From Escherichia phage vB_EcoM_G2285: DNA of 64,000 nt. The notes beneath the pieces were generated by a model. It was given only the letters and a program-made list of their open reading frames with translations. It had not been told where the DNA came from and ran no database searches. Positions 2,227 to 49,786 of this stretch are shown here, in pieces (position 1 is the stretch's first letter; each line of letters opens with the position of its first letter). Position numbers and translations under genes: made by a program. The stretch lies in the sequence record MK327933.1; one strand, 5' to 3'.

Positions 2227-2427
2227 TCACAAGTTACGTTTAAAAATTTCTGCTACTTCAAGAAGTTCTTCTTTAGTAGCTGTATCGGTTTGTATTTTAT
2301 ATCGAATTTCTTTAAAGCGTTCTTTAAAGGACTCTGCTGACTCAATATCAAAAAATCTTTGGATAAGCCGGAATTCCCGGAGCACTGCTTTATCAAAAAG
2401 TTCCAAGTCCACGTTATATGTTCTCAT
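2227..2427 (-). CDS. small protein, positional equivalent of T4 rIIA.1
   Basis: 66 aa ORF immediately upstream of rIIA on same strand. Confidence 0.5.
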   Translation of the reverse strand: MRTYNVDLELFDKAVLREFRLIQRFFDIESAESFKERFKEIRYKIQTDTATKEELLEVAEIFKRNL

Positions 2428-2519
2428 AATATTCTCTTCAGTAGATTCCTAGGGCACTATTACTAAAGACCATATAATCTATCATCTTATGTGTAATAGT
2501 GCCTCAGGCTATTCAGGAT

Positions 2520-3620
2520 TTACGCTGTGAAGATTTTATCCCACATCGCAACAACTGCATCTCGATTATACTTCTTCCATACTGCTTCAGCACGTTTAAC
2601 TCGAGCTTCGTATGTGTCAGTGAATTCTAATACAGCTTTTGTGTAAAGCGCAACTACTTCTTTCTTAGGAGTAGAGGAATCAATTTCTACACGCACAGTA
2701 TCTGGGTCGTATTCGAATGTCGCATGAGGATAATCCTTAAAAACTAACTGGATTACAGGGACACCTTTAGAGATGGCTTCAATAGAACTATTCTCTACTG
2801 TACCTGTGTCAGGACACGTATTAATAAGTGCTTTAGCTGTTTTAAGACGTTCCATGATTTCACTGTGTGGAGCATCAATAATAACAGGATATTTAGCTGG
2901 TGGTGCCCATTTACTAGGACAATAACCAATACCATTTTCGCCTAGTGCTTTAATCGCTTCAAGAGCAACATCAGTACGACGCATTTTAGTGTCATAACGT
3001 TGTGCACTAATAATCAGATCAGTCGCCGGAAGAACTTCAGGTTTCTCATTCAAACAAATAACCGGATAATCTTCGGCTTCAAACAACGGATTTGCTCGCC
3101 AATAATCATAATCGATTTTGTCAGTCAGACCTGAAGTCATATAACAATATTTGCGTTCAAATTCACGGAAGGCTTTAGTAGGAGCATAACTCTTACCACC
3201 ATTCTTATGAATTTGAATAGTCTGGTCCCAAATTTGAACAATGCCGCGAGATACCGGTTCAAATGGTGTTGCCATAAAATTCTTATGAACTTTAGAGAGA
3301 CCTGCGTCTTTAATTGCCTGAACGGTTAGTTTAGTCGGTTCCATAGTAACAACAAAATCGTATTCATGGATGCCGGCTAGTTCAACAATCTTACGAGCCA
3401 TAGTATAACTCATACCTAGACTGAATTTAGTCAGATGACCAACAGGATGGTGTGTAACTTTCCAGTCACCAAACGTGTCATTATCAAAGCCGATATAATC
3501 AATATCAGCACCGATGGACACAAGATATTTCAACACATTTAAATGTACTGCTTCAAGACCACCTTGTACACGGTCAGGATTAAATGGGACCGCACGAGAT
3601 GGGATAAACATAACTTTCAT
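2520..3620 (-). CDS. GT-B (GT4-like) glycosyltransferase, candidate DNA sugar transferase
   Basis: 366 aa; C-terminal E-x7-E-type motif TVENSSIEAISKGVPVI typical of GT4 donor-binding domain; N-terminal MKVMFIP..GG..A Rossmann start. Confidence 0.65.
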   Translation of the reverse strand: MKVMFIPSRAVPFNPDRVQGGLEAVHLNVLKYLVSIGADIDYIGFDNDTFGDWKVTHHPVGHLTKFSLGMSYTMARKIVELAGIHEYDFVVTMEPTKLTVQAIKDAGLSKVHKNFMATPFEPVSRGIVQIWDQTIQIHKNGGKSYAPTKAFREFERKYCYMTSGLTDKIDYDYWRANPLFEAEDYPVICLNEKPEVLPATDLIISAQRYDTKMRRTDVALEAIKALGENGIGYCPSKWAPPAKYPVIIDAPHSEIMERLKTAKALINTCPDTGTVENSSIEAISKGVPVIQLVFKDYPHATFEYDPDTVRVEIDSSTPKKEVVALYTKAVLEFTDTYEARVKRAEAVWKKYNRDAVVAMWDKIFTA

Positions 3621-29901: not shown

Positions 29902-30905
29902 TCAAAAATCGAACATATCGAACAGAGATGCTTTCTTCTCGTAATCGAGTTTCGCTGCTGATGTGAATCCTTCAAGTGGTTTAATAAATGTCTTCTCAAG
30001 GAGAACAGTGTAGTCCATCCAATGAAGTACATCGTCTTTAATTAAATCTGTGATTTCAGTACCAGAAGGCCATGCGATACATTTATCACCGAATGGGTTT
30101 CCTTCACGTAAAGGCAGAACATATACTTTTTCACCTTCTACAACTTGCGGTGCATCGATATTACCTTTGATAGCCCGGTTATACGTCAGAATTCCACGAA
30201 TATGGAACGGGCATTTAGGACCAGGGAATCCACCGACGTCATATTTAGCAATGTTATTCGCAGAAGATACCGACGCGATGCTAATATAATTCAATTGACG
30301 GAATTCTTTTTCAAACTCTTTAAAATATTCTTGTAATGATTCTTCGCCTTCCTGAAGCATACGACGAATACATTCCTTAAGAGCTTTCTGTACTGCTTTA
30401 GGAGTCGAAGATTTCTGAGTCTCTAGACCCATGATTTTAAGCTTAGGTTCAGCGTATCTGGTTCCTTCCATATCCCACACGTTTAATGCATAACGTTTCT
30501 TACCAGTCCAGAATCCACCAATACCTTTAGAACCAAGCGGAGGACCAGCAATAGCTTCTCGGTCCATGAACATCAAATGTTGTTTATTGTTCATGTATTC
30601 ACACATTTCACGGAAACCTCTATCAATAGCTGGTTCCATACGTTCACGTGCAAACTTATCTAAGAAGTCTACCCAATGGTTGGTATCACGGAATTTAGAT
30701 TCACCAACCTTATCAATAATTTTATCTGCAGATACGTAAATGGAGTCTGTATCACCATAAAGAACGAAAGCTTCACCTTCTGTACCACAAACTTCATTCA
30801 GATATTCATTAACTTTACGTTCAATCCACTGTAAAGCCATTTGACCAAATGTTGTGATTGCAGTAGCATTACGCAAATCGTAATAACGGAACCAAACGTT
30901 ACCCA
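29902..30905 (-). CDS. 43: DNA polymerase gp43, cistron B exon 2 (palm/thumb, YGDTDS)
   Basis: translation from GNVWFRYYDLRNATAIT through YGDTDS to ..FDMFDF matches recalled RB69/T4 gp43 C-terminus; 5' boundary set at inferred splice site. Confidence 0.85.
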
Positions 30906-31137
30906 CATTATGTTCGACTGAGGTCGTTAATCTCAGCCCGGAATTATATCCAGCTGCATGTCGCCATGCAGAGCAGACTATATCATCATCTTTATAGATG
31001 CTATGCGCTTCCACCCACTTGGGCGTACTCCTTTCGGATAGTCGTTGCACGTTCCTCATAGAGGCTTCGCTCAGGATTGTCTACTAGAGATGTCCCCTGA
31101 ATTCACATAGTTTAAAGTGCGCCGAGTTATTTGGTTA
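30906..31137 (-). ncRNA. group I intron (td/nrdD-like, ORF-less, 232 nt) in gene 43
   Basis: interrupts motif B codons (..LYGAL | GNVWF..); core elements CTCTAGTAGACAATCC and GATATAGTCTGCTCTGCATGGCGACATGCAGC; starts TAA after exon U, ends ..CATAATG. Confidence 0.75.
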
Positions 31138-31306
31138 ACGCACCATACAGACTATTAATAAGCAATTTACGGTTAATCTGAGCCGTATTACCTGCTACTT
31201 CAGCCAATTCGCAGTTTTTAAGATGTTGTTCTAAATCAGCTTTGCTTAAGGACTTGAGATAAGAAATTTCATCTTGTGAAAAGTCTTGAGTGTATGTTAA
31301 ATTCAT
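31138..31306 (-). CDS. 43: DNA polymerase gp43, cistron B exon 1 (motif B)
   Basis: ATG overlapping HEG stop (TAATG); encodes MNLTYTQDF..NTAQINRKLLINSLYGA, the polymerase K-x3-NSxYG region. Confidence 0.7.
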
Positions 31307-32127
31307 TATATTTTATTCCTACAGTTATCAAAGTGCCAACGTTTCATACCAGATAATATACCTTCTTTACCACAGTGCGGACACGTTGCTTTAATCTCTT
31401 TAGCTTTAGCCCAGTATTCTTTCTTAGAGTCTGAAAGGGCCTTATTATGGGCTTCCGAATTGGTTTTGCCTAATCTTGTTTTAACTATATTAGGATTCTC
31501 TGAAATTCTTTGCTTCATCCTAGAAGACTGTTTAGAACGTTGTTCTTTCGACCAGCCATCAGATAAAACTTTCTTTTGTTCTTCAGTTTTGGTTGTACCG
31601 AAGAGATGGGATTTATTTTTAGAATAGTATTCTTTGAGACCTATAGATTGTTTTAACGAAGTTTCAGCAGAATGCTTTGTTCCTATTTTATTTTTACTTG
31701 CTACAGCCCAATTGGCTGCTGCTATGGCTTTATACTTTTCAGGATTTTTGGCTATAGTGATTTTAATAGAATCTGAAACCTTTTTAGCAATCTCTTGGGA
31801 CTTCATAGGATTTGGTAGATTTAAAGAATTTACATAATCCCAACCGCCTTTACCACCAGGATTAAGATTATATGTATCATTTCTTTTTACAAAATCTTTA
31901 TCTACAATTTTAGCTTCAAGGGCATAAGCTTCATCTTCATTATCGAATACTTCCAAAATGGTCTTTTGGAGATTTTCTATACCGTATTTTTCAACGGCTG
32001 CTTTAACAACAGGTCCAGAACCGCGGTAAATATCGTTTTGATTAGACTCATCACACTTATGAACACCTACATAAATTTTACCATTAACGACATTAGTAAT
32101 TTGGTAAACAGTATAAACAGTTTTCAT
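31306..32127 (-). CDS. GIY-YIG homing endonuclease inserted within gene 43
   Basis: VYQITNVVNGKIYVGV GIY-YIG motif; C-terminal CPHCG..MKRWHFDNC zinc finger; start set at ATG with SD GGAGG. Confidence 0.75.
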   Translation of the reverse strand: MKTVYTVYQITNVVNGKIYVGVHKCDESNQNDIYRGSGPVVKAAVEKYGIENLQKTILEVFDNEDEAYALEAKIVDKDFVKRNDTYNLNPGGKGGWDYVNSLNLPNPMKSQEIAKKVSDSIKITIAKNPEKYKAIAAANWAVASKNKIGTKHSAETSLKQSIGLKEYYSKNKSHLFGTTKTEEQKKVLSDGWSKEQRSKQSSRMKQRISENPNIVKTRLGKTNSEAHNKALSDSKKEYWAKAKEIKATCPHCGKEGILSGMKRWHFDNCRNKI

Positions 32128-32153
32128 AATATCCTCCATTAGTTGATAAGACT

Positions 32154-32183
32154 ATAATACCACATCCTTGTGGTATTGTAAAC
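32154..32183 (-). promoter_or_regulatory. early-type promoter for the intragenic endonuclease
   Basis: minus GTTTAC-N18-TATTAT then AGTCTTATCAACTAATGGAGGATATTATG. Confidence 0.45.
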
Positions 32184-33703
32184 TATTTTGAAGCCAAAAT
32201 CTCTTTAATTATTTCAGCATTTCGCTGTGCAGCCAACATGTAGCGCTTATGTTCTTTACGCTGCAAGAATACCTTAGTGATTTCTGTTGGAATCACACCA
32301 TCACGGTCTTTATAATACATCATGCCGTTAGGAGAGCAACTGTACACATCTGAAGGACGTTCGGCGATTGCGTTAATATACTCATGCAGTGGAGCTACTT
32401 TAAACGTTCCTGCTATTGTTTCCGGGCTAATATTCACTTGGCGAATAATACTTGGATACAGAGATGTAAGGTCGAAACTCATTACATATTTGTATCGATT
32501 TGGAATAGGTTCCTTAACAAAAGCGCCAGGATAAGGTTGAACCGGGTGAGAACGACCTTGTGGAATCACCTTGTTCTGCTCTTTAAGGCTATTAAAAATA
32601 ATAGCATCCCATGTTTTAATTGGGCTAAACACAGATTGAATCTGTATCTTAGCATAATAACCCATGTCCAAGCTCAAGTTGATGAACTGACGCTTAGCAT
32701 CAATTTGCAATACACGATACACGTCGATAATGTTATAAGAAATATATCGTTGGTGATTGCTTTCACGAAGCTTAGAAATAGGGCCGTCATATTTCAGTTT
32801 ACCAACGTTCAATTCAAATTCTGAAATGTAATCCAGAGAATATGACGGTTGATTGGTAAAAGAGAATTTTTTGTAAAGGTCAATGTAATCAAGAACAGAG
32901 ATACCGAACAATGTAATGATTTCACGAGAACCATACATGTTTTCGATAACTTTAACACGAGTTTTACGATGTGGTGACAACCGTTTTGCTGTGGATTCGC
33001 CAAAAATATTCTTGATTCGGTTATACACATATGGAATATCAAATGACTCAACGTTCCATCCAGTCAAAATGACAGGAGTTTTCTGTTGCCAGAAGTTGAG
33101 ATATTCCATCAACAATTCTTTTTCGTTATCGAACGGCATATAAATGATTTTATCGATAATTTCAGATGGAACTTCATCACCGCCTTGTTCTTGAAGCTTA
33201 GCAGCGATTTCAATAGACCATTCTTCTACATTACCATACGGAGAATTCAATAGATCAAATACATAGAACCTGTCGTCAATTGAGTCATAATGGGTGATAG
33301 CATCAATCGGATGTTTTGCTTGTGACGGCTCAGGGAACCCATCCGGAGATGTTACTTCGATGTCGAAGTTAGCCACACGAATTTTTGTATGGTCGTATTT
33401 GATTTCATAGTTATAAGTGTCAGACAAATACGCCAATTTGAAATCGTCCATGCCAAGTGCTTCAAGTCCGATATCTTCCATGCGTTTAATCCATTGGGAG
33501 GCATCACGCATATTAGCGAACAGCTTACGAGTACACGGCTTACCGTAGATATCGAAATATTTCGTAGCCTGACTTTCTGGACAATGAGCAAACAGTGATG
33601 GTTTATATTCTACTTCACGAGTACGTTCACGGCCATTAGAATCGATGTAACGTTCAAAAATTGAATCACCAATCTGTTCAACCGTTAAGTAAAATTCTTT
33701 CAT
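32183..33703 (-). CDS. 43: DNA polymerase gp43, cistron A (N-terminal and 3'-5' exonuclease domains, motif A)
   Basis: 506 aa; MKEFYLTVEQIGDSIFERYID..FDIEV..YNIIDV..DLTSLYPSII matches recalled RB69 gp43 N-terminal half; ends at in-frame stop. Confidence 0.9.
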   Translation of the reverse strand: MKEFYLTVEQIGDSIFERYIDSNGRERTREVEYKPSLFAHCPESQATKYFDIYGKPCTRKLFANMRDASQWIKRMEDIGLEALGMDDFKLAYLSDTYNYEIKYDHTKIRVANFDIEVTSPDGFPEPSQAKHPIDAITHYDSIDDRFYVFDLLNSPYGNVEEWSIEIAAKLQEQGGDEVPSEIIDKIIYMPFDNEKELLMEYLNFWQQKTPVILTGWNVESFDIPYVYNRIKNIFGESTAKRLSPHRKTRVKVIENMYGSREIITLFGISVLDYIDLYKKFSFTNQPSYSLDYISEFELNVGKLKYDGPISKLRESNHQRYISYNIIDVYRVLQIDAKRQFINLSLDMGYYAKIQIQSVFSPIKTWDAIIFNSLKEQNKVIPQGRSHPVQPYPGAFVKEPIPNRYKYVMSFDLTSLYPSIIRQVNISPETIAGTFKVAPLHEYINAIAERPSDVYSCSPNGMMYYKDRDGVIPTEITKVFLQRKEHKRYMLAAQRNAEIIKEILASK

Positions 33704-45947: not shown

Positions 45948-46418
45948 TTAATCATGTTTCCACACCCCATTGGTATTTAACCAAAGTCGCTGATTATCTG
46001 ATCCTCGCCACAGCTTTTTAGTCGGAAGATTTTTCTCATACTTCCCATCAATAATAACATCAACATATTTAAGCATTTCTAGCTGTTTAATATCTTCAAA
46101 CTTATATCCTGTCCACAACCAAATGCTTTTATTGGGATAAAGATTTTTTACTGTTTGAACAATGCAATGAATAACATCTCGGTTATCAGGATAGAGAGGG
46201 TCACCTCCGGTTATAGTCAATCCTTCTATATAATCATTATTCAAACATTCAATTAATTGTTCTAGTGTTTCACCAGTGAATGGAATACCATTTCTAGCAT
46301 TCCATGTTGATTTATTATAACACCCTTCACATTTATGCAAACAACCTGTAACGAAAAGAACGACCCTGCAACCAGGGCCATTCACAAAATCGCAAGGATA
46401 AAATCTATCATAATTCAT
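45948..46418 (-). CDS. nrdG: anaerobic ribonucleotide reductase activating protein (radical SAM)
   Basis: 156 aa; C-x3-C-x2-C motif TGCLHKCEGCYN. Confidence 0.88.
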   Translation of the reverse strand: MNYDRFYPCDFVNGPGCRVVLFVTGCLHKCEGCYNKSTWNARNGIPFTGETLEQLIECLNNDYIEGLTITGGDPLYPDNRDVIHCIVQTVKNLYPNKSIWLWTGYKFEDIKQLEMLKYVDVIIDGKYEKNLPTKKLWRGSDNQRLWLNTNGVWKHD

Positions 46419-47694
46419 TGGTGTTTAACCCTATGCATTATTTCTTTATTTTTACCGAGATTAAATCCGCGTTCGTTCGGATTTCCCAAATAACCGCATG
46501 TTCTTCTTATGGTGTTCATCTTTTTAGGATCAGTTTCTCCGCAAACTGAACAAACAAATCCGTTTTCAGTAGGAGTCATTTCATGGGTACTTCCGCATGT
46601 AAAACATTTATCTACTGGCATATTAACACCAAAATAATCTAAATGTTGTGCAGCATAATCCCATACGGCCTCAAGACCTTTTAAGTTATTTTTCATATCA
46701 GGAAGTTCAACATAAGAAATGTGGCCACCTGTCGCAATGAAATGATATGGTGCTTCACGAGAAATCTTTTCAAACGGAGTAATATTTTCTTCTACTGAAA
46801 CATGGAAACTATTAGTGTACCAGCCTTTATCAGTGACATCCTTTACACTTCCATATTTTTCTGTATCAAGTTTACAGAAGCGATAACAAAGGTTTTCAGC
46901 AGGAGTCGAATATAAACTAAAAGCAAACCCAGTTCTTTCAGTCCACTGTTTAAGATGAGCATTCATTTTAGTTAAAATTTCCTGTCCAATATCACGACCG
47001 ACAAGAATATTCAATTCATGAATACCAATGTATCCTAGGGACACTGAACTTCTACCGTTTTTAAATAACTCAATTATGTCGTCATCAGGTTTAAGACGAA
47101 CCCCGAATGCACCTTCTTGGTAAAGAATAGGAGCAACAGTCGCTTTAACTCCTTTTAAGGAACTAATTCTACACATCAAAGCTTCAAAACACAAATCCAT
47201 TCGTTCATTGAATAATTCAACAAATTTCTGTTCATTGAACTGTGTTCCAATATAAGAATCTAACGCGATGCGAGGAAGATTCAATGTTACAACACCAAGA
47301 TTATTACGTCCATCAAGAATTTCATTACCAGTCGAATCTTTCCATACGCTCAAGAAACTACGGCAGCCCATTGGAGAAACTGGAACTGAAGAACCGGTAA
47401 TAGCTTTATTATTCTTAACCGAAATAATGTCAGGATACATTCTTTTGCTTGCACATTCTAACGCAAGTTGTTTAATATCATAGTTCGGATCATCTTTATA
47501 AAGATTAACACCTTCTTCAACAAACATAACAAGCTTAGGGAAAATAGGAGTTATCCCATCACGACCAAGACCTTTAATCCGATTTTTCAGAATTGCTTTC
47601 TGAATCATTCGTTCAGTCCAGTCAGTTCCAGTACCAAATGTAATTGTTACAAAAGGCGTTTGTCCATTTGAACTGAAAAGTGTATTTACTTCAT
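46415..47694 (-). CDS. nrdD: anaerobic ribonucleotide reductase NrdD, exon 2
   Basis: glycyl radical motif RRTCGYLG and C-terminal zinc ribbon; 5' boundary at inferred 3' splice site so the join reads ..AYE-YEVNTLF.. Confidence 0.85.
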
Positions 47695-47720
47695 CATTAT
47701 ATTCAGCATGAGTCGCAAAT

Positions 47721-48491
47721 TCATGCTCGTTTATATGAAACAACAAAATTTGGATAGTCCATAGATATGCAACGTTCTTTTATAGTGCTAGGATGAAAAT
47801 TTAGCGCTTTAGCTGCTTCTATATAAGACGTATACTTAATACCGTCAACAACCACATATTCAGGAACTTTATGAATAGTAGTCTTAATACTCAAAACAAG
47901 AGGATGAGTTTCGACTTCACTTTCAGTGCAATTTAAATATTCCGCTGCTTTTTTAAAACTTCTAAAAGTTTTATTTTTAAGCTTTATCGATACTTGTTTT
48001 TTACTTTTTCGACTATTGATATTATTTTGCACATGTTCCTTAGATCTTCCGTTTTTAGCATAATATTCAGCTACAGAAGATTTTATATTGTTTTTATGAG
48101 ATTCGGATAACACTTTACCCTTATGAGCATCTCTTAATTTTTGAATATGTTCTTCAGTATCCGGATGCTTATAAAACTTTTTACCGCCTATGGATTTATT
48201 TAAACATTTTTTGCTATAAAAATATTTACGTATGACCTCTTCTTCATGTTTTAATGCATCTTTATAACTATCAAATGTTTTTAAAATTATCCATTTAGTA
48301 GGTGTATCAGTTTTTAAGCGTTCATTTATATACTTAGATGACGTTGTGTAAGTTTTCCAGTTTGTGGGCTTGTTTTTAATTGTTCTAAATTTTTTATAAC
48401 CGATATAAATGTCGCCATTAGAAAACTTAACTAAGTATGTAAATGCGTCTTTATCTTTTATTTTAGTACAACGTCTTTTTATCCATTTCAT
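47721..48491 (-). CDS. intron-encoded GIY-YIG homing endonuclease (I-TevII-like)
   Basis: 256 aa; YLVKFSNGDIYIGYKK GIY-YIG motif; lies in 3' part of the nrdD intron. Confidence 0.8.
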   Translation of the reverse strand: MKWIKRRCTKIKDKDAFTYLVKFSNGDIYIGYKKFRTIKNKPTNWKTYTTSSKYINERLKTDTPTKWIILKTFDSYKDALKHEEEVIRKYFYSKKCLNKSIGGKKFYKHPDTEEHIQKLRDAHKGKVLSESHKNNIKSSVAEYYAKNGRSKEHVQNNINSRKSKKQVSIKLKNKTFRSFKKAAEYLNCTESEVETHPLVLSIKTTIHKVPEYVVVDGIKYTSYIEAAKALNFHPSTIKERCISMDYPNFVVSYKRA

Positions 48492-48520
48492 TGTTTCACC
48501 TCGTATTCATAAGATAATCT

Positions 48521-48528
48521 TATTTATA
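48521..48528 (-). promoter_or_regulatory. T4-type late promoter TATAAATA inside intron
   Basis: about 30 nt upstream of endonuclease start, followed by SD GAGGTG. Confidence 0.5.
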
Positions 48529-48739
48529 CAAGATGACTGCTGCATGTCGCCATGCAGATTAGACTATATCTTCATCTTTCGATGCCGGCCGTTTCGAATA
48601 GCATTAGCTTCTATTCTACACCGCTACATTCATCACGGTTAGTCGTTAGGCATTTAGTTCAAAAGAACATTTAGCACGGGATTGTCTACTAGAGAGGTTC
48701 CCCGTTTAGACCGGTTTTACATGAGCCTGAATTAAATTA

Positions 48740-49277
48740 ACTCATACGCCTGGAATGCATCGTATACGTCTTTTTCTGTTTTAGATTGAGCATAATTCAA
48801 CGCATCAGCGATTTGCCATTTTTCTGCATCTTCAATATGTTTAGCATATGTGCGTTTAACATAAGGAGAAAGTACTTTATCTACATTCGCAAATGTAGTT
48901 CCGCCATACTGGTGTGAAGCAACTTGCGCGGTAATTTGTGCCATAATTGCAGTAGCAACACCGATTGATTTAGGAGTTTCAATCTGTGCATTACCTAGCT
49001 TAAATCCGTTTTCAAGCATTCCTTTTAAATCTACTAAACAACAATTAGTAAATGGAAGAGCAGGGGAATAATCAATATCGTGCACGTGAATAATTCCGCT
49101 TTCATGCGCTTTCATAATAAAAGACGGGACTATATTTTTGGCAATGTGTTTAGACACAATACCAGCCATAAGGTCCCGTTGAGTTGGAAAAACACGAGAA
49201 TCTTTATTAGCATTCTCGTTTAAAAGGTCTTTATTAGTTTTATGAATCAATCCTTCAATTTCTTTTTCAATTGTCAT
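48740..49277 (-). CDS. nrdD: anaerobic ribonucleotide reductase NrdD, exon 1
   Basis: MTIEKEIEGLIHKTNKDLL.. matches recalled T4 NrdD N-terminus; exon1+exon2 = 605 codons. Confidence 0.85.
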
Positions 49278-49747
49278 TTTAAACTCTTTCTAAGCTGCTT
49301 CTTAAATGAAGCTATTAACTGTGTTTTGGTGTCAGATTCATTATATTCAAATCCTCTTTGAAGCATCTCAGCCATCATTTCCTCTTTTCCTAAACGAGAA
49401 AATTCCTTTGATTTATCTCCAACAAAATTAGGATGGATATTATTATCAGAATAATCTTGTTTCAAATAAGCAAGAAGAGATTCAAGCCATTCGAGGTAGT
49501 CGACATCACGACCTTTAAGACCAGAACGGTTGAACTTATGCTTCATTTGACCTTCTGCTGCGTTGCACAGATTACAGAGTAATCCACGAACTCTACCGGC
49601 TTTTGGCCCGTTTAATTCATGGTCGTGGTCAAGATGGTTACCTTGAACATCAGGGTCTAATTCACGGTGGCAAATAGGACACTTACCGTTCTGTGCATCA
49701 TAAAATTTTTGTTTTTCTTCTTTATATTTTGCGCCTGATAATAACAT
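49274..49747 (-). CDS. 49: endonuclease VII (Holliday junction resolvase)
   Basis: 157 aa; near-colinear with recalled T4 gp49 incl. CPICHRELDPDVQGNHLDHDHELNGPKAGRVRGLLCNLCN. Confidence 0.93.
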   Translation of the reverse strand: MLLSGAKYKEEKQKFYDAQNGKCPICHRELDPDVQGNHLDHDHELNGPKAGRVRGLLCNLCNAAEGQMKHKFNRSGLKGRDVDYLEWLESLLAYLKQDYSDNNIHPNFVGDKSKEFSRLGKEEMMAEMLQRGFEYNESDTKTQLIASFKKQLRKSLK

Positions 49748-49786
49748 GATAAACCCTTACCTTAAATAGATAAGGGTATTTATAAT

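Follow-up and report, generated by a model that had tools for sequence, protein, structure and literature searches.

Within a window of 64,000 nucleotides (nt) from Escherichia phage vB_EcoM_G2285 (MK327933.1; the window is the whole stretch of DNA analyzed), the gene nrdD, for the anaerobic ribonucleotide reductase, is interrupted by a group I intron that encodes a homologue of the phage T4 homing endonuclease I-TevII. The element is very probably a mobile, self-splicing intron of subgroup IA, carrying the extra helices P7.1 and P7.2, which belongs to a diverged lineage (here called W-type) and occupies exactly the site of the T4 nrdD (sunY) intron. Observed here were the anatomy of the element, substitutions that preserve its structure, reading frames free of interruption and its pattern in phage populations, and splicing, expression timing and cleavage by the W-type element are predicted from its T4 homologue. 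An initial annotation had proposed an intron with its core at the 5′ end, followed by an I-TevII-like GIY-YIG endonuclease gene behind a Shine-Dalgarno (SD) sequence and a late promoter of its own, and every part of this was borne out, the promoter as a motif. Features are listed in Table 1.

Table 1. Positions in the window of the features of the W-type nrdD element and of the gene 43 cassette. A slash marks a splice site; aa, amino acids; bp, base pairs.
Feature	Position	Strand	Details
nrdD exon 1	49277..48740	minus	538 nt; codons 1-179 and first base of Tyr180; ends ...GCG TAT GAG T
nrdD group I intron	48739..47695	minus	1045 nt; 5′ TAATTTAATTCAGG ... AATATAATG 3′; terminal G at 47695
nrdD exon 2	47694..46415	minus	1280 nt with stop; starts AT GAA GTA AAT
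In-frame TAA stop	48732..48734	minus	3 codons into intron (GAG T/TA ATT TAA)
Ribozyme core P1-P9	48540..48745	minus	RF00028 match, with pairing checked by script
Late-promoter motif of T4 type, TATAAATA	48528..48521	minus	30 nt 5′ of endonuclease ATG; overlaps 5′ arm of hairpin
SD-sequestering hairpin	48536..48496	minus	UCAUCUUGUAU (48536..48526) pairs with AUACGAGGUGA (48506..48496); 11 bp
SD sequence GAGGTG of endonuclease gene	48502..48497	minus	7 nt between GAGG and ATG
Homing endonuclease gene, I-TevII homologue	48491..47721	minus	256 aa; GIY-YIG/Seg-like N-terminal domain, NUMOD1-type C-terminal DNA-binding module
3′-terminal hairpin AGCAUGA/UCAUGCU	47705..47727	minus	intron 1013-1035; holds stop codon of the endonuclease reading frame; followed by tail GAAUAUAAUG
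Gene 43 (DNA polymerase)	33703..29902	minus	insert at 32200..30904
43A	33703..32183	minus	506 aa, ends in stop; then 43-nt spacer with hairpin
Free-standing GIY-YIG endonuclease gene in gene 43	32139..31306	minus	277 aa
43B exon 1	31306..31138	minus	starts at ATG overlapping stop of endonuclease gene
Gene 43 group I intron	31137..30906	minus	232 nt, without reading frame; Rfam 83.6 bits
43B exon 2	30905..29902	minus	

Reading of the sequence and joining of the exons showed that the exon ends (DAFQAYE and YEVNTLF), the coordinates, the intron length and the 605 codons of the joined frame in the initial annotation were all correct. The protein across the junction reads ...DAFQAYE-Y-EVNTLF..., and exon 1 ends one base past the Glu codon because the Tyr codon is divided T/AT. 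The predicted ligated junction is ...GCGTATGAGT/ATGAAGTAAAT..., and a second stretch given for the predicted spliced junction is ...CAGGCGTATGAGT/ATGAAGTAAATACAC.... The joined product aligns without gaps to T4 NrdD (PDB 1H78), residues 1-605 to 1-605, with 5 residues differing. Since the exons are ~4.5% diverged from T4 in DNA, yet only 5/605 residues differ from the 1H78 chain, we conclude that the host gene is under purifying selection. In the intronless phages T2, T6, KMB39 and JS09, exon 1 and exon 2 abut exactly at the splice point of the window. The raw list of open reading frames (ORFs) splits nrdD in two, as had been noted, into a first ORF, of 181 aa, that extends 3 codons past the end of exon 1, and a second, of 443 aa, whose start is a spurious TTG within the intron. 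The in-frame stop near the 5′ end of the intron has an equivalent in the T4 nrdD intron (GAG T/TA ACG TAA), and may serve to halt ribosomes ahead of the ribozyme core.

The covariance-model search suggested in the initial annotation, run on a 1.5-kb sub-window (47500..49000), returned a match to Rfam RF00028 at 48775..48540 (70.6 bits, E = 1.6e-17, model positions 1-253), above the gathering score of 50, and thus confirms that nrdD is interrupted by a group I intron with its core at the 5′ end. The T4 nrdD intron scored 105.3 bits in the equivalent test. Helix P1 pairs exon AUGAGU (48745..48740) with intron GCUCAU (intron 14-19), which places a U.G pair, formed by the last exon U and G14, at the 5′ splice site; both this wobble and the terminal G of the intron are as expected for group I introns. 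Helices P3, P4, P5, P6/P6a, P7, P7.1, P7.2, P8 and P9 were located by inspection at intron positions 26-200 and checked by script. The two extra helices between P7 and P3′, P7.1 (ACCG/CGGU) and P7.2 (GAAUAG/CUAUUC), place the intron in subgroup IA by the criteria described in PMC3984707. Bases +2 to +5 of exon 2 (UGAA) are able to pair with intron positions 9-12 (UUCA), a putative P10 assigned by inspection. The hairpin at the 3′ terminus of the intron has a T4 counterpart in the equivalent place with another stem (GUAGAG/CUCUAC).

When W-type and T4-type introns were compared by script, every helix was found to pair in both though the sequences differ. P3 is CCGGUC/GGCCGG in the W-type and UCUGCC/GGCAGA in T4, P6a is GUUC/GAAC and CAGC/GCUG, and P7.1 is ACCG/CGGU and UCCC/GGGA; P4, P7.2, P8 and the 3′ hairpin likewise pair in both types with different sequences. 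RNAalifold, applied to five related cores (both nrdD types and three gene 43 introns), gave 42 pairs, 16/42 of them with compensatory double changes, and predicted P4-P9 independently, P7.2 included. In the MAFFT alignment that mixed nrdD and gene 43 introns, P1 and P3 were out of register by one column, and these two helices were therefore judged from the comparison of W-type with T4 alone. Because the helices show compensatory changes, we conclude that both nrdD intron lineages have been under selection for the fold.

In T4 (NC_000866), the nrdD intron lies at the identical point, is 1033 nt long and encodes I-TevII (258 aa). Exon 1 and exon 2 of the window share 96.5% and 95.1% nucleotide identity with T4, whereas the introns share 66% overall, ~74% in the core and 63% in the ORF. 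Public copies fall into two groups with no intermediates, one sharing at least 99.4% identity with the W-type and the other at least 99.5% with the T4 type; the 66% overall identity of the window intron to that of T4 stands against at least 99.5% among T4-type copies. Insertion site and order of parts are those of the T4 nrdD/sunY intron. By its sequence, therefore, the window intron is a second, strongly diverged lineage at the T4 site rather than the T4 intron itself. The two systems have in common the host gene, the insertion point (after ...TATGAGT, before ATGAAGT), a core in the first ~200 nt, an ORF past P9, a 3′ splice site that is far from the core and preceded by a terminal hairpin, the in-frame stop at 3 codons, TATAAATA, a GAGGTG SD sequence that is identical in T4, an SD-sequestering hairpin and a homologous endonuclease. 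In addition to the difference in length (1045 nt vs 1033 nt), the W-type has a longer P7.2 and a shorter P8 with a GAAA loop. In exon 2, the window differs from T4 at 5 positions within +8 to +17, which we take to lie near the reported I-TevII cut site.

The intron-encoded endonuclease shares 56% identity with T4 I-TevII over its full length (E = 1e-101; 256 vs 258 aa), and the wording "I-TevII-like" was thus apt, as the protein is a homologue of I-TevII and not I-TevII itself. The gene has a G+C content of 28.5%, compared with 36% in the nrdD exons. Pfam matches were obtained to PF19835 SegE_GIY-YIG (26.6 bits) and NUMOD1 (25.3 bits), which agrees with the GIY-YIG assignment made at the outset, and the protein also matched PHROG 314 "homing endonuclease" (E = 3.6e-29). 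SegE_GIY-YIG was matched by 24/40 relatives (best E = 3e-16). The motif reads FTY19-x9-Y29IG31, and in an alignment of the 40 relatives Y29, G31, E83 and N98 do not vary, while conservation of Y19 is at least 90%; this pattern corresponds, as judged from the alignment, to the GIY...YIG/Glu/Asn signature. A word-indexed protein search recovered only two clusters at 90%, the W-type (64 members) and the T4 I-TevII type (38 members), and an exhaustive HMMER search recovered 249 representatives at E <= 1e-3, with the next closest relative 38% identical. No family matching the endonuclease was found in an NCBIfam search. Domain-specific divergence from I-TevII was considered and rejected, as identity is uniform at 52-63% per 50-aa block.

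The SD sequence of the endonuclease gene lies in a predicted hairpin with a minimum free energy of -17.8 kcal/mol (z = -4.2; 0/200 shuffles fold as well). T4 has an equivalent hairpin formed by CCUCGUAU/AUACGAGG; the architecture is conserved and the sequence is not, with 11 bp and a 19-nt loop in the W-type vs 8 bp and an 8-nt loop in T4. A late promoter upstream of I-TevII has been described in T4, and for all three T4 intron endonucleases the late promoter overlaps an arm of the SD hairpin (PMC2988022). From the motif and from its position, homologous to that of the T4 I-TevII promoter, TATAAATA is predicted to be the late promoter of the W-type endonuclease gene. Transcripts begun there would lack the 5′ arm of the hairpin, which the motif overlaps. 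A second TATAAATA at 49777..49784 on the minus strand, 30 nt 5′ of the start codon of gene 49 (endonuclease VII), also fits a late promoter.

By analogy with T4, the element would function as follows. The intron would be transcribed within the nrdD pre-mRNA, and ribosomes translating exon 1 would halt at the UAA three codons into the intron, leaving the core free to fold. P1, in which the U.G pair marks the splice site, would then act with the P3-P9 core to catalyze guanosine-initiated splicing, with the remote 3′ hairpin, P10 and the terminal G bringing in the 3′ splice site from ~800 nt downstream, and the ligated exons would encode the 605-aa NrdD. In early transcripts the 11-bp hairpin would bury the SD sequence of the endonuclease gene; transcripts from the late promoter (TATAAATA), being without the 5′ arm, would allow the 256-aa endonuclease to be made late only. 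The endonuclease would cut the intronless nrdD of co-infecting phages near the exon junction, and repair from an intron-bearing copy would transfer the intron (homing) with very short co-conversion tracts.

The distribution of the intron is consistent with such mobility. Among 701 phage records matching the nrdD exon junction, 633 are intronless (~90%), 43 carry the W-type and 25 the T4 type, so the statement in the initial annotation that such an intron is expected for T4-like phages was too strong. The W-type endonuclease gene occurs in 43 public Tequatrovirus and Mosigvirus records at 99.4-100% identity, although the exons of these records share only 92-96.5% with the window, and the T4-type gene occurs in 25 records at >=99.5%, many of them T4 stocks, with U5, RB55, RB59, PST and others. 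In six phages of the genera Tequatrovirus and Mosigvirus (235Ecol030PP, JEP6, PNJ-6, F27, F2 and KAW3E185) the intron is 99.7-100% identical to that of the window, whereas exon 1 is 91.8-95.7% and exon 2 93.1-96.5% identical, and exon polymorphism resumes 9-14 nt from the junction on both sides. A near-identical intron in diverged exons, with differences beginning this close to it, indicates recent horizontal transfer with short co-conversion tracts, and by this comparison the W-type would have spread recently among T4-like phages. Exon position -2 is G, as P1 requires, in 10/10 intron-bearing alleles examined, and A in 3/4 intronless ones.

Degenerate copies were also found. Frameshifted endonuclease genes give alignments of 772 or 770 nt where 771 is the intact length, and in F1/FN, 236Ecol005PP and F27 the gene is annotated as split. 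Mini-introns from which the endonuclease gene has been deleted are present in 215Ecol030PP (479 nt; 2253..2731 of locus L009) and BYEP01 (345 nt; 2244..2588 of locus L010), with short repeats (AAGAC; GA(A)CGTTG) at the endpoints of the deletions. What remains in both is the first 263-293 nt, with the ribozyme core and the promoter/SD region, and the last 81-191 nt, including the region of the 3′-terminal hairpin. The frameshifted copies and mini-introns represent decay products of the homing cycle.

Several points weigh against a self-splicing intron spread by its own endonuclease. When all 64 kb of the window were scanned with Rfam defaults, the gene 43 intron was the only one listed and the nrdD intron was missed; this omission is a loss at the filter and not an absence, since the intron appeared in the 1.5-kb search. 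Rfam filter settings scale with search size, and true group I introns can stay hidden. The SegE_GIY-YIG score of the endonuclease is marginal (26.6 vs a cut-off of 25), a comparison with PDB sequences gave no match at E <= 10, and hhalign of the W-type and I-TevII profile against I-TevI was uninformative (probability 0.9%). TATAAATA is unenriched in the window, with 6 matches vs 7.6 expected. Of the claim that the endonuclease gene has its own late promoter, the motif at the homologous position stands, and its count, being at chance level, means that the promoter is proposed from that position only. The near-identity of the intron among phages could partly stem from ordinary recombination and not from endonuclease-driven homing. 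Finally, splicing and cleavage in the W-type are predicted by analogy with T4.

The best-surviving alternative, which we nevertheless consider improbable, is that the intron splices while its endonuclease is inactive or does not drive its spread, with copies moving by general recombination or by trans-homing through a neighboring gene (mobC, segH), in the way that mobE acts for the defunct I-TevIII. Trans-homing is documented for nrdB (PMC2790892), in many relatives nrdD and nrdG are separated by mobC, SegH or a different endonuclease gene, and the frameshifted copies (F1/FN, 236Ecol005PP, F27) and the two without an ORF altogether would also be expected. However, the ORF in the window is uninterrupted, 43 records have it at 99.4-100% identity, its catalytic-motif positions are conserved, and the window lacks an endonuclease gene between nrdD and nrdG. 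In addition, the co-conversion tracts stop 9-14 nt from the intron on both sides, and therefore point to a cut adjoining the insertion site rather than one ~1.3 kb away. A mobile intron with its own endonuclease remains the preferred reading. It is far less probable still that nrdD does not splice. It would then be either a pseudogene in decay or a split gene whose two parts are translated separately on either side of a free-standing endonuclease gene, as in nrdA of phage Aeh1, which mobE splits. Two nrdD coding sequences (CDSs) are indeed annotated by ORF callers and in most GenBank entries, but the core is complete, with P1, the U.G wobble, the terminal G and compensatory evolution; exon 2 starts without an in-frame ATG or SD sequence, the only upstream start being a TTG inside the endonuclease gene; the division falls within a codon (T/AT); and across the junction the protein sequence shows strong purifying selection. 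The idea that the element is the canonical T4 intron with I-TevII, copied unchanged, is scarcely conceivable and is refuted by the alignments, for although insertion site, part order and host gene are as in T4, the intron, core and ORF (66%, ~74% and 63%) lie far below the exons (95-96.5%), the protein is 56% identical to I-TevII, the lengths differ (1045 vs 1033 nt) and no intermediates exist among public copies.

For the W-type and T4-type introns themselves, it is possible, although rather unlikely, that they are two old, independently evolving lineages competing for one site, with endonuclease targets perhaps diverged to match exon-2 variants, such that one might cut DNA carrying the other intron. 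The exon-2 variants around the cleavage region are ...GTAAATACACTTTTC and ...GTAAATACTCTCTTT, vs ...GTGAACACGTTATTC in T4. If this were true, competition between the two types would be a natural T-even intron-versus-intron system, like I-HmuI/I-HmuII in SPO1/SP82.

Compared with the T4 td intron and its endonuclease I-TevI, the W-type element shares the phage IA-type family, a similar J8/7-P7-P9 sequence, a similar 3′ tail, and control of the endonuclease by a late promoter and SD hairpin (PMC2988022), which in the W-type is predicted. Over intron positions 30-71 (48710..48669), the sequence matches T4 td intron positions 43-84 with 100% identity. This 42-nt stretch spans the 3′ end of P3, P4, P5, P4′ and the start of P6; it is common to td of T4, T6, RB3 and many others, and the T4 nrdD intron differs in it. 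The identity could reflect an exchange between introns or shared ancestry with a conserved ancestral core. The td system differs in host gene and site and in the placement of the ORF, which lies 5′ of the 3′ half of the core in td and after P9 in the W-type, and I-TevI has no detectable sequence similarity to the W-type endonuclease beyond the motif level.

Sandegren and Sjoberg reportedly described in 2004 a "recent transfer of old introns" among T-even phages, with the nrdD intron in T4 and U5 only. In the database, both of these introns are of the T4 type. The W-type shares with that homing-cycle pattern an intron far more conserved than its host gene, presence in a minority of relatives, and degenerate or deleted endonuclease genes; it differs in that the W-type lineage occurs only in genomes deposited later. 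A literature search found no paper describing the W-type nrdD intron. The system is of a known, textbook kind, of which the W-type is a second lineage whose sequence is already in public genomes.

In terms of annotation, nrdD here and in the 43 public genomes should be a single spliced CDS of 605 aa; in public records, a "homing endonuclease" usually appears beside two seemingly unrelated nrdD fragments. For the classic nrdD/I-TevII element of T4, there is now a second, deeply diverged counterpart at the identical site, which is commoner than the T4 type among distinct field isolates and is found nearly unaltered on both sides of the Tequatrovirus/Mosigvirus boundary. Comparison of the two lineages supplies natural covariation data for the sunY ribozyme, their related endonucleases can be compared for target recognition, and the two natural mini-introns that lack the ORF indicate which parts splicing requires. 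The W-type leaves the established view of group I intron homing as it was.

On the minus strand, nrdD is flanked by gene 49 (endonuclease VII, 49747..49274) and nrdG (46418..45948). It overlaps nrdG at 46415..46418, with no endonuclease gene between the two in this phage; in that position T4 has mobC, and F2, T6, 235Ecol030PP, KAW3E185 and BYEP01 have SegH or other endonuclease genes. A similarity of the homing site to the region over the SD sequence, as an "operator" or relic of invasion, was rejected: 16/20 bases match, but so do 9/200 shuffles. That match is between the T2-type site and intron positions 225-244, and the W-type and T4 spliced junctions match at 14/20, no better than shuffles. 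It is a weak hint only, consistent with Loizos et al. (via PMC3984707). The unrelated Vibrio phages F96 and 1.084.O (~140 kb) have nrdD introns that carry HNH or wHTH ORFs, with cores 74-85% identical to window intron positions 85-204. Insertion of these introns at the site used in the window was rejected, as theirs lie at NrdD residues 125/126 and 289/290. On this comparison, nrdD is invaded repeatedly by introns.

The window contains a second interrupted gene, gene 43. It is otherwise 97-98% identical to the Mosigvirus gene, 207 nt of which are replaced here by a cassette of 1297 nt. Joining the exons of 43B gives ...NSLYGALGNVWFRYY..., precisely the sequence that uninterrupted Mosigvirus gp43 has at this place. 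No such cassette was found at the megablast level among 50,697 phage genomes. Its endonuclease is 41-44% identical to that in the split polymerase genes of the Aeromonas salmonicida phages 25, phiAS4 and Aes508, which have the same part order and a homologous intron; the best IMG/VR relative (47% identical) also lies between polymerase halves. The composite gene 43 element of Aeromonas phage 25 is reviewed in PMC2988022, and the window cassette matches it. The gene 43 cassette is rare, has been described so far only in Aeromonas phages, occurs here in a coliphage, and is more unusual than the nrdD element. It looks, from sequence comparison, as if the whole polB cassette was laterally transferred into a Mosigvirus-like coliphage, and it probably exemplifies collaborative homing. 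By itself, the gene 43 intron is found at 93.8% identity in Escherichia phage PSD2002 (Dhakavirus; ~3067..3295 of locus L017), where it occupies the same site (after ...LYGA) with neither the endonuclease gene nor the division into 43A and 43B; in GenBank, PSD2002 is given two "DNA polymerase" CDSs. In Shigella phage JK42, gene 43 (~2964..3409 of locus L015) has a duplicated 3′ segment, such that window positions 30331..29957 match twice, and is recorded as a truncated polymerase and a "hypothetical protein"; the duplication is either genuine or an artefact of assembly.

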